In this document: in pieces, positions 30,680-32,274 of the stretch
Layout of the letters: every line of letters begins with the position of its first letter
How positions within the stretch are numbered: position 1 is the stretch's first letter
Assembly (NCBI GenBank): GCA_036844565.1
Contig: DAIUFP010000006.1
Location: forward strand, 93,433-157,432
Length of the DNA stretch: 64,000 bases
Direction: 5' to 3'
Source of the DNA: Gemmatimonadaceae bacterium
Lineage (GTDB): Bacteria > Gemmatimonadota > Gemmatimonadetes > Gemmatimonadales > Gemmatimonadaceae
Notes under the pieces: generated by a model
What the model was told of the DNA's origin: nothing
The model's database searches: none
What the model saw: only the letters and a program-made list of their open reading frames with translations
Position numbers and translations under genes: made by a program

Positions 30680-31441
30680 ATGTCGCAGCGCACTGGAATC
30701 GAGTGGACCGATACAACTTGGAATCCGGTCACGGGCTGCACTCAGGTAAGTGACGGCTGTGATAACTGCTACGCCTTGACGCTATCCCACCGACTCCTAA
30801 GCGCGCACTACACTCGCCGGCGCCCCGCTCGTAACACGCCGACGAACCGTCGCGATCCCTTCGCAGTCAGGCTTTGGCCAGAGCGCCTAGGTGAACCTGC
30901 TCACTGGCGCCAACCACGGCGCGTCTTCGTCAACAGCATGGGCGATTTGTTTCATGTCGATGTTCCCGAGACATTCGTTCGCGAAATCTTCGAGACGATG
31001 CTTCATGAAGACCGCCACATCTACCAAGTACTGACAAAGCGCCCCGCACGCCTTGCACGCTTCGTAAAGCGCAACGCCGATTTGTTCGGAGATGCTACCG
31101 TGCCCCCGCACATCTGGGTGGGAACTTCCATCGAGAACTCTGAAACCGCTTTTCGCGCTGACCATCTGCGCAATGTCGCGGCGAGTGTGCGCTTCCTGTC
31201 ATGCGAGCCGCTGCTCGGTCCAGTGCGTCTGAACCTCGACGGACTGCATTGGGTCATCGCTGGCGGCGAAAGCGGTCACCACTACCGTGAACTCGACCTC
31301 GACTGGGTCAGGATGATTCGCGACGACTGTGAGCGTGCAGAAGTCCCGTTCTTTTTCAAGCAGGTGGGCGGGCGGACGCCCAAGGCCGGGGGACGAACCT
31401 TAGACGAGAGAACATGGAGCCAGTATCCCGCTATGCGGTAA
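30680..31441 (+). CDS. DUF5131 / phage Gp37-Gp68 family three-Cys-motif protein
   Basis: [41 protein letters not shown] and VIAGGESG. The ORF extends to 30596. Confidence 0.85.
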   Translation: [253 protein letters not shown]

Positions 31442-32274
31442 GTGATGCTCCGAGGCGAGTGGAACCCGACGGCCTCTACGTTCCGACGATCAAACCGCAC
31501 TCCCTAGACAAGATCCACCTGCATAACCGTTATGCTCGCATAATGGCCACCGCCATGCGAGACAGGTGGGAGAGGCGGGCGTATGTCGGCCTGTACTCCG
31601 GAGCCGGGTACGCGAAGCTCGACAAGACCGAGGAGATCTACGAAACCTCCGCGCTGGCTGTGTTTCGACAGCCGGACCTGTTCACGGATTATGTCTTCGT
31701 AGACCGCAATCCCCTTTGCACGTCCGCGCTCAACTCCCGTATATCCCGCATCTCGCCGACAGCGAACTGCTCCGTCCTCTCGGGGGACGTCAACGCGTCG
31801 ATTGACAAGGTTCTCGCGAAGCTCCCTATGCACTCGCGCACTCAGAAGGTTCTGACCTTCTGCTTCGTCGATCCTTTCGATCTGAAGCTTCAATTCGAGA
31901 CCGTCAGGCTACTTGCGGAACGCCGAGTGGATTTTTTGATCCTCTTGGCACTTGGCTTCGATGCCAGACGCAACATCGTACGCTACTATCGCGATCTCGA
32001 TGACCGCACCATCGGCGACCTGATCGATGATCCGCAGTGGCGAGATGCATACAAGGCGTCCGGAGAGAAGCGGATCGTCCACTTCATGCTTCGGAAGTTC
32101 GATGAACAGATGCGGTCGCTTGGCTATCTCTCGGCGGCGGGGGACGAGCACCCGATCAAGAAGGGCGGCGTGCTGCTATACCACCTCGTCTTCTACAGTC
32201 GCTCCGAGCTGGCGAAGAAATTTTGGCGCGACACCTGTCTGGGAATTACGAAGCAGCCTAGTCTGTTCGACTGA
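31414..32274 (+). CDS. tcmP: Three-Cys-motif partner protein TcmP-like
   Basis: KPHSLDKIHLHNRYARIM...YVGLYSGAGY...YVFVDRNP matches my recollection of TIGR04474. It is adjacent to DUF5131 and overlaps it by 28 nt. Confidence 0.65.
   Translation: MEPVSRYAVSDAPRRVEPDGLYVPTIKPHSLDKIHLHNRYARIMATAMRDRWERRAYVGLYSGAGYAKLDKTEEIYETSALAVFRQPDLFTDYVFVDRNPLCTSALNSRISRISPTANCSVLSGDVNASIDKVLAKLPMHSRTQKVLTFCFVDPFDLKLQFETVRLLAERRVDFLILLALGFDARRNIVRYYRDLDDRTIGDLIDDPQWRDAYKASGEKRIVHFMLRKFDEQMRSLGYLSAAGDEHPIKKGGVLLYHLVFYSRSELAKKFWRDTCLGITKQPSLFD

Follow-up and report, generated by a model that had tools for sequence, protein, structure and literature searches.

A DUF5131–TcmP gene pair in a Gemmatimonadaceae genome as a probable portable module of a predicted radical SAM enzyme and a methyltransferase-fold partner

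Two adjacent genes in a stretch of 64,000 nucleotides (nt) from a Gemmatimonadaceae bacterium (contig DAIUFP010000006.1, positions 93,433 to 157,432; this whole stretch is hereafter the window) encode a protein of the DUF5131 family, also annotated as phage Gp37/Gp68, and TcmP, a three-Cys-motif partner protein. The pair is flanked by yajQ (29880-30380, minus strand) and by an rpoD-like sigma factor gene (35294-36268, minus strand). The two reading frames, their overlap and the region before them are as follows.

30680-31441, plus strand: DUF5131/Gp37-Gp68 gene, 253 amino acids (aa); PF07505, PDC-M41B, phrog_2045, AlphaFold2 model
31414-32274, plus strand: TcmP gene, 286 aa; TIGR04474, PDC-M41A, AlphaFold2 model, Foldseek
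31414-31441, plus strand: overlap of both reading frames, 28 nt, possible translational coupling; from the open reading frame (ORF) coordinates
30381-30679, no strand: spacer of 299 nt between the yajQ start and the DUF5131 start, presumed divergent promoter region, guanine plus cytosine (GC) content 0.55; from the sequence and its GC content

The 28-nt overlap, which an earlier interpretation made from the letters alone (the sequence-only reading) had pointed out, is real by the ORF coordinates, and the same relative positions are kept in two related genomes (loci L001 and L005). Upstream of the DUF5131 start lies an in-frame ATG at 30596; this ATG is unsupported as the start, because homologues begin with MSQRTG or MGQRTG. 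For TcmP, one public gene call of the identical protein (P0005), which comes from the window's own source, begins at Met44 and gives 243 aa. Since the conserved N-terminal motif of H29, S30, K33 and H37 is located upstream of Met44, with K33 98% conserved family-wide, the 286-aa reading is the correct one. A truncated DUF5131 in L001 and L005, for which the public calls give 167 aa (both at 9525-10028), was considered and rejected: the full-length ORFs are intact and score 487-489 bits, and the 167-aa calls are start-site errors. Start-codon errors in the public DUF5131 and TcmP calls could hide the pair from family-based annotation. A consensus promoter scan gave nothing convincing in 30381-30679, and the promoter and terminator scan was uninformative.

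The assignment of the first protein to DUF5131/Gp37-Gp68, proposed from a three-Cys triad and the SCEPLLGP and AGGESG motifs, was confirmed by a hidden Markov model (HMM) search, in which residues 5-250 aligned to positions 2-243 of the 243-position PF07505 profile with an E-value of 4.9e-88 and 295.2 bits (gathering cut-off 28.9); PDC-M41B of PADLOC (E 1.2e-88) and phrog_2045 matched as well. All three motifs are present, as C20-x6-C27-x2-C30 and at residues 174-181 and 194-199, respectively. Among 163 homologues, C20, C27 and C30 are each 99% conserved. C217 (94%) and C175 of 'SCEP' (just 41%) are candidates for the equivalent of the catalytic Cys of spore photoproduct lyase (SPL), an enzyme that reverses DNA damage directly. 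AlphaFold2 models of both proteins were built from 121-sequence alignments. The DUF5131 model (mean predicted local distance difference test, pLDDT, 90.7) is a partial triosephosphate isomerase (TIM) barrel like the solved members of the radical S-adenosylmethionine (SAM) enzymes, and its Cys motif follows the strand at residues 17-19. Its six best matches in the PDB were all SPL entries (E 4e-3 to 1.6e-2, probability 0.94-0.99, template modelling (TM) score 0.41-0.48), followed by lysine 2,3-aminomutase and, lower down, by NifB, EpeE, DesII and LIAS among TIM-barrel proteins that are not radical SAM enzymes; no similarity to viperin was found in this fold search. Supportively, DUF5131 is listed as a radical SAM subgroup (SFLD/RadicalSAM.org) in the same megacluster as SPL and is grouped next to it (PMC9477430).

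The relationship to SPL and to the SplB-like and PA0069-family proteins (COG1533), which are DNA-directed enzymes, is seen in the best folds and in a putatively homologous Cys context, NPxxGC...GCxxCYA. In a profile comparison with the PA0069 family, NPvtGC-x6-GCxxCYA aligned on NPyqGC-x3-GCxxCYA, weakly and over 19 columns (E 1e-3, probability 20%). This short, weak alignment would make the CX6CX2C of DUF5131 the counterpart of the canonical CX3CX2C cluster motif with a three-residue insertion. DUF5131 differs from SPL and PA0069 in being ~90-150 residues shorter, in carrying CX6CX2C instead of CX3CX2C, and in needing, or often having, a methyltransferase-like partner. A partial match to TIGR04471, protein A of the radical SAM mobile pair (TIGR04471 A plus TIGR04470 B), was also obtained (E 1e-11). 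That system likewise is a mobile two-gene set around a DUF5131-like enzyme, and PA0069-type neighbours of the present pair partially match its protein B; however, the score is 44.7 bits against an equivalog cut-off of 355, and the window partner has a methyltransferase fold rather than being a second radical SAM enzyme.

The second protein, proposed as TcmP in the sequence-only reading, is indeed placed there by TIGR04474, whose cut-off of 53 bits it passes with 99.1 bits (E 4e-28), its residues 28-275 aligning to positions 1-259 of the 263-position profile; PDC-M41A of PADLOC matched residues 33-187 partially (E 9e-17). The matches of the two proteins to PF07505 and TIGR04474 far exceed what chance would give. 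Neither TcmP nor DUF5131 had a significant sequence match in the PDB, by single sequence or by profile. The TcmP model (pLDDT 92.2) returned 291 Foldseek matches in the PDB at E <= 1e-3, and those listed were almost all SAM-dependent methyltransferases; the viral structure library gave the same picture. The best folds were E. coli RlmJ entries (E 1.4e-6 to 1e-5, TM ~0.5) and the RlmJ homologue 2oo3. The motif order fits a class I methyltransferase, as beta1 is followed by G59-L-Y-S-G63-A-G65, beta2 has D97 at its end, beta3 is followed by D125-V126, and beta4, the strand at residues 146-152, leads directly into D153-P154-F155. Conservation among 113 members of the family, taken from bacteria, phages and proviruses, is highest at K33 (98%), G63, G65, D153 (100%), P154 (96%) and W209 (95%), the range over these six residues being 93-100%.

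These residues invite comparison with RlmJ, the 23S rRNA methyltransferase forming N6-methyladenine (m6A) at 2030, in which K18 of motif X and D164 of motif IV are indispensable, stacking on the target adenine has been proposed for W195, and the site resembles that of DNA m6A methyltransferases (PMC3814359). K33, D153 and W209 of TcmP may mirror K18, D164 and W195 of RlmJ, a likeness at the level of modelled structure and motifs. Shared with RlmJ and with the DPPY DNA m6A methyltransferases are the class I fold, the Lys-bearing helix of motif X, GAG in motif I and, following beta4, Asp-Pro in motif IV; TcmP differs from both in its inserted subdomains, in a lack of significant sequence relation and in its constant DUF5131 partner. 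No nuclease family, by which a restriction–modification (RM) system would be recognized, was found in the pair or the adjacent window ORFs (Pfam, NCBIfam, PADLOC, PHROGs).

To what extent the two genes belong together was assessed by a scan of one genome per species, which yielded 80 TcmP loci, 76 of them evaluable in not being cut by a contig end. The loci are spread over six or more phyla, including Gemmatimonadota, Bacteroidota, Ignavibacteria, Acidobacteriota, Nitrospirota and Eisenbacteria. DUF5131 immediately adjoins TcmP on the same strand in all 76 evaluable loci. DUF5131 precedes TcmP in the Gemmatimonadota clade and follows it in most other phyla, and in phages the two genes are often convergent; among the viral loci closest to the window DUF5131, TcmP is adjacent in 35 of 80, whether upstream, downstream or convergent. 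Adjacency kept across three orientations is strong evidence that DUF5131 and TcmP are functionally coupled. The dependence is one-sided, as TcmP was never seen without DUF5131, and DUF5131 is frequently alone. DUF5131 is also the better conserved of the two, at 66-75% identity versus 45-56% for TcmP in the same set of organisms.

A set of 1.84 billion representative proteins contains 2,957 TcmP clusters at 50% identity (E <= 1e-3). DUF5131 occurs in bacteria and archaeal viruses; 180 of 50,697 phage records have it, as do at least 585 contigs of IMG/VR. No fusion of TcmP with DUF5131 was found in the best 150 of the 2,957 TcmP clusters, so these offer no Rosetta-stone evidence. A tblastn search with TcmP against the 50,697 phage records gave no match, which reflects limited sensitivity, as HMMs then found TcmP in three phages; a peptide-pattern scan of IMG/VR with the Gemmatimonadota TcmP alignment returned no relative. 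In two Bacteroidota loci, a second, divergent TcmP paralogue (TIGR04474 138-146 bits) stands convergent to DUF5131 (L032:11615-12442 and L035:11634-12467, minus strand), and this TcmP-DUF5131-TcmP arrangement hints that TcmP may be an exchangeable specificity subunit. A third conserved partner of the pair was sought and rejected, the commonest neighbour family occurring in just 7 of the 76 loci.

The pair was already known as such. TIGR04474 is named after its partnership with PF07505, an architecture identical to that in the window; the definition carries no function, and the order DUF5131-TcmP of the window is the Gemmatimonadota arrangement. The pair is also listed, in PADLOC-DB v2, as PDC-M41, one of 145 candidate PDC systems predicted by 'guilt-by-embedding', that is, from homologous cassettes inside BREX, DISARM or type I RM systems (bioRxiv 10.1101/2024.01.29.577857). 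Both window proteins match the PDC-M41 models (A, TcmP-like; B, DUF5131) and lie adjacent on the same strand; they differ from the predicted system in that the window pair is not inside any known defence system and that the window TcmP matches its model over residues 33-187. Full-text literature searches found no functional study of DUF5131, TcmP or PDC-M41, and TcmP appeared in gene lists only. The earlier statement that the two form a recognised co-occurring module with no assigned function therefore holds.

Across the evaluated loci, the surroundings of the pair are highly variable, with 138 immediate neighbours matching 130 different Pfam families. Its GC content is below that of the flanks in 64 of 67 loci, by a median of 6.3 points, in hosts ranging from 34% to 73% GC. 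Genes that recur next to the pair in proviruses are those for integrases, serine recombinases, CI-like helix-turn-helix plus S24 repressors, HsdR/HsdM/HsdS and Dam-like methylases. In the Gordonia phages Bosnia and PantheRoc, the pair is situated between a tyrosine integrase/metalloprotease and the immunity repressor, with TcmP directly downstream of the repressor gene. Three phages carry the full pair in convergent orientation, with no annotation beyond that of hypothetical proteins.

L087:3992-5844: Gordonia phage Bosnia gp44-gp45, full convergent pair
L091:5001-6733: PantheRoc gp40-gp41, full convergent pair
L092:4992-6610: Synechococcus phage Ssp-JY39, full convergent pair

In the Gordonia phages, the TcmP gene shares 4 nt with the end of the immunity repressor gene, and its product is longer by a C-terminal extension of ~100 aa. 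More distant phage DUF5131 proteins (326-342 aa, no TcmP) lie in replication and recombination modules beside DNA methylase, DnaQ-like, DprA-like, Erf, SSB and ExoVIII genes. In a gene list of the S. meliloti plasmid pSymA, TcmP stands beside the Hna defence gene (PMC12445080). The mobile or defence-type setting that the sequence-only reading had anticipated is thus found in proviruses, in the lysogeny region of Gordonia phages and next to HsdR/HsdM/HsdS, and the neighbourhood survey, which might have placed the pair in conserved housekeeping contexts, instead found variable, GC-deviant contexts, frequently those of proviruses, with integrase, CI repressor and type I RM genes as neighbours.

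A second recurrent context, which that reading did not foresee, is formed by SOS and translesion gene clusters. In 14 of the 76 loci, from four phyla, the pair lies among DNA-damage genes, and in several of these loci it is co-directional with them at gaps of 3-60 nt. These neighbours encode LexA/UmuD-like proteins (TIGR00498, 123.8 bits), Pol IV/UmuC-like and B-family polymerases, and PA0069-family radical SAM proteins (NF033668, 447 bits). In L057 the order is PolB-TcmP-DUF5131 with gaps of 7 and 25 nt, and PA0069-type genes are directly upstream of the pair in L083, L084 and L086. The co-directional, closely spaced strings of the pair with polymerase, LexA-like or PA0069-type genes are the following.

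L057:3-4030
L017:9968-12891
L041:9342-13605
L083:934-3774
L086:8684-11552

PA0069 is one of the 15 SOS genes of P. aeruginosa. SOS regulation of SplB-like radical SAM genes is known from several phyla, among them Bacteroidetes, in which the operator is CTAA-N5-TTAG (PMC8565304, PMC3765255). Exact copies of this operator were found in the TcmP-DUF5131 junction of four loci (L032:10832-10844, L034:10832-10844, L049:10838-10850 and L065:1658-1670), 24 nt upstream of TcmP in L069 (9953-9965), and at the head of operons that include the pair in L077 (8511 and 9320) and L086 (7406). At a background of 0.019 per kb, ~0.15 junction sites were expected and 4 observed, L032, L034 and L049 being related and not independent; because of this relatedness, the enrichment is a lead and not proof. 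It suggests that at least DUF5131 may be under DNA-damage control in some Bacteroidota.

In the window itself, the interval from 30363 to 33376 that holds the pair has a GC content of 0.58, compared with 0.65 for the rest, and is bracketed by a direct repeat derived from yajQ. The intact gene at 29880-30380 is YajQ by PF04461 and NF003819, and a remnant of its 5′ end lies 3.1 kb away, on the far side of the pair. The repeat copies and the remaining features up to the sigma factor gene are as follows.

30281-30362, minus strand: left boundary direct repeat, the 5′ coding end of intact yajQ, 82 nt, 87% identical to the right copy; repeat search
33377-33476, minus strand: right boundary repeat, a remnant of yajQ codons 1 to ~40 with its own ATG and no homology upstream of that ATG; repeat search
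32373-33301, minus strand: two ORFs of 106 aa (32373-32693) and 194 aa (32717-33301), extra cargo between TcmP and the yajQ remnant
33541-34506 and 34503-35297, minus strand: two genes overlapping by 4 nt, the first for 321 aa with a GxG motif like that of methyltransferases and no family match, the second for a Methyltransf_24 protein

We infer that this repeat structure is the leftover expected from a single crossover between the chromosomal yajQ and a yajQ 5′ fragment on incoming DNA. An orthologous remnant follows right after TcmP in L001-L004, and since L001 has the same remnant, the duplication predates the split of the lineages. The cargo around the pair differs among the window and its relatives: the segment 32277-33256 with the two small ORFs is absent from the otherwise collinear L001-L005, the segment 33468-35297 with the two methyltransferase-like genes is present in the window and absent from L001 and L005, and L005 alone has ~8 kb of other genes between yajQ and the pair. 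In these at least two related Gemmatimonadaceae genomes, L001 and L005, the pair nevertheless keeps the same place. The stretch from yajQ to the sigma-70 gene is therefore a hotspot of variable content, and the pair is its old, constant and functional element. Synonymous divergence (dS) between the window and L001/L005 is 0.43-1.15 for the pair and 0.70-0.87 for yajQ and the sigma factor gene. Because the locus is shared with relatives and the synonymous divergence is like that of the flanking core genes, the acquisition was old and not recent. A pseudogene or decaying remnant was rejected, as the ratio of nonsynonymous to synonymous divergence (dN/dS) against the relatives is 0.04-0.05 for DUF5131 and 0.09 for TcmP, indicating purifying selection.

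The small horizontally acquired islet proposed by the sequence-only reading is supported, with a caveat. Low GC content, the yajQ repeat and cargo that varies among relatives speak for it. No integrase, recombinase or transposase family was found among the ORFs between yajQ and the sigma-70 gene (Pfam, NCBIfam), and no tRNA as a possible integration target in the window, leaving the yajQ-derived repeat as the sole element-like feature; and the acquisition is old. The 106-aa and 194-aa ORFs matched nothing in Pfam, NCBIfam, PADLOC or PHROGs, nor did the 321-aa neighbour in Pfam, PHROGs or PADLOC. The 194-aa ORF begins just downstream of the yajQ remnant, and the former yajQ promoter may drive it. 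The adjacent Methyltransf_24 protein, within 33541-35297, weakly matched mad2 of PADLOC and a PHROG that carries the annotation DNA methyltransferase.

Family memberships, folds, conserved residues, obligate adjacency, a mobility signature and purifying selection are supported directly by these analyses. All lines of evidence converge on a portable unit in which a putatively SAM-binding, base-flipping methyltransferase-type protein and an SPL/SplB-like radical SAM-type enzyme most likely work together on nucleic acid, DNA being the most probable target; phages, proviruses and islets would carry this two-enzyme module as cargo. A role in phage–host or mobile-element conflict, as self-marking, anti-restriction or defence, is the one that we favour, with a confidence somewhat short of even. 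It is favoured because of the GC deviation, the patchy distribution, the position in provirus lysogeny modules, the type I RM neighbours and the independent PADLOC prediction.

Cluster and SAM binding, substrate, chemistry and biological role may, as we infer, be connected as follows. TcmP would be a SAM-binding, methyltransferase-fold protein with an RlmJ/Dam-like active site of Lys33, Asp153-Pro154 and Trp209, as suggested by its model. It would pick the site, flip a base, probably a purine, into its pocket and probably N-methylate that base. DUF5131 would be a [4Fe-4S]/SAM radical enzyme of the SPL/SplB-like lineage, its cluster held by C20, C27 and C30; it would make a 5′-deoxyadenosyl radical and take a hydrogen atom from the same or a neighbouring nucleotide. 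The net outcome would be a covalent change of a DNA base. A more tentative proposal is that the chemistry on DNA is previously undescribed, in that TcmP presents a flipped base to the SPL-like DUF5131; the outcome could be either a new hypermodification serving as a self or anti-restriction mark, or an SOS-controlled direct-reversal repair common to bacteria and phages.

Several findings weigh against the module as pictured here or against its role in conflict. On the side of DUF5131, the TM-scores of the fold matches are modest, the CX6CX2C spacing is non-canonical, PF04055 was not matched, PF07505 being the sole match in Pfam, and no SplB HMM matched either. For TcmP, motif IV reads DPF and not DPPY, so that the second Pro of (D/N)PP(Y/F/W) is absent; an hhalign comparison with a single RlmJ sequence was not significant (E 0.041, probability 1.3%, motif I only); and no Pfam methyltransferase family rose above noise, nor did any of the 121 members match the RlmJ family at E <= 1. 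The target may also be RNA, RlmJ itself being an RNA enzyme. In the window, no known defence or mobility gene adjoins the pair. In the replication modules of many phages DUF5131 stands by itself, which means that not all of its roles require TcmP. Finally, the SOS/translesion neighbours in 14 of the 76 loci and the SOS-box-like sites before DUF5131 in some Bacteroidota favour repair over conflict.

Repair or tolerance of DNA damage is the closest rival reading. Here DUF5131 would reverse a lesion by radical chemistry as SPL does, TcmP would flip the lesion or base, and the pair would be expressed under SOS control with translesion polymerases in some lineages. The recurrent SOS/translesion-polymerase gene clusters make it a serious rival to defence, and the kinship with SPL, the operons with polymerase, LexA and PA0069 genes and the SOS-box sites bring it close to conflict, below which we place it by a small margin in probability. 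The closest fold of DUF5131 is that of a direct-reversal DNA repair enzyme beside which it is also grouped, the clusters with DNA-damage genes recur in four phyla, PA0069/SplB-like proteins are SOS-regulated in several, the operator sites are exact and well placed, with four junction sites against 0.15 expected, and stand-alone phage DUF5131 sits among recombination and replication genes. However, 62 of the 76 loci have no SOS neighbour, including the window and all Gemmatimonadota loci, and three of the loci with SOS boxes (L032, L034 and L049) are not independent. Low GC content, a patchy distribution and association with proviruses and RM genes form a pattern seen more typically in conflict systems, and mobile elements commonly carry LexA-like, CI-like and UmuC-like genes themselves. 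Moreover, a protein that did no more than read lesions could dispense with the SAM-binding and catalytic signature, all of which TcmP retains.

Radical SAM enzymes that modify RNA are common (RlmN, Cfr and MiaB among them), which counts towards a system in which TcmP methylates, and DUF5131 further modifies, a nucleotide of rRNA or tRNA, either as housekeeping or in a phage–host fight over translation. In structure, TcmP comes closest to an rRNA m6A methyltransferase, one without action on single-stranded DNA (PMC3814359), and RNA-targeting genes are often embedded in type I RM loci (bioRxiv 10.1101/2024.01.29.577857). This reading is nevertheless improbable. The patchy, variable and GC-deviant contexts are unlike those of housekeeping RNA-modification genes, and the genes that recur beside the pair encode DNA polymerases, DNA methylases and recombinases or belong to RM systems. 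Both the nearest fold and the nearest homologous radical SAM clade of DUF5131 act on DNA, and the RlmJ active site itself resembles those of DNA m6A methyltransferases (PMC3814359).

A module for abortive infection, in which DUF5131 would make a toxic or chain-terminating small molecule in the manner of viperin and TcmP would be its sensor or regulator, could draw on the PADLOC listing as a defence candidate and on the location in a prophage lysogeny module, but is hardly probable given that the fold search with DUF5131 put SPL and lysine aminomutase at the top and showed no viperin likeness, that TcmP retains the signature of a base-flipping methyltransferase, and that a DUF5131 alone among lytic-module phage genes would be odd for a suicide effector. 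Radical SAM antiviral enzymes do exist, as the prokaryotic viperins, and this has been counted in its favour. RNA modification and a viperin-like effector both fit fewer observations than conflict or repair does.

Returning to the DUF5131–TcmP module acting most probably on DNA, what is new here are the fold assignments of the two proteins, the adjacency in all 76 evaluable loci, the GC deviation, and the provirus and SOS contexts. The fold assignments and the SOS link sharpen the hypotheses about a pair already catalogued; the window copy alone is one more instance of a known pair and not a new kind of system. Because it is intact, compact (1.6 kb) and under purifying selection, this copy is usable as a test construct. 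DUF5131 is one of the larger radical-SAM-related families without a known reaction, a large subset of which has TcmP as obligate partner. Assigning a function would give a name to thousands of genes now called 'phage Gp37/Gp68 family protein', and would decide whether a catalogued candidate is a defence, a DNA-modification or a repair system.

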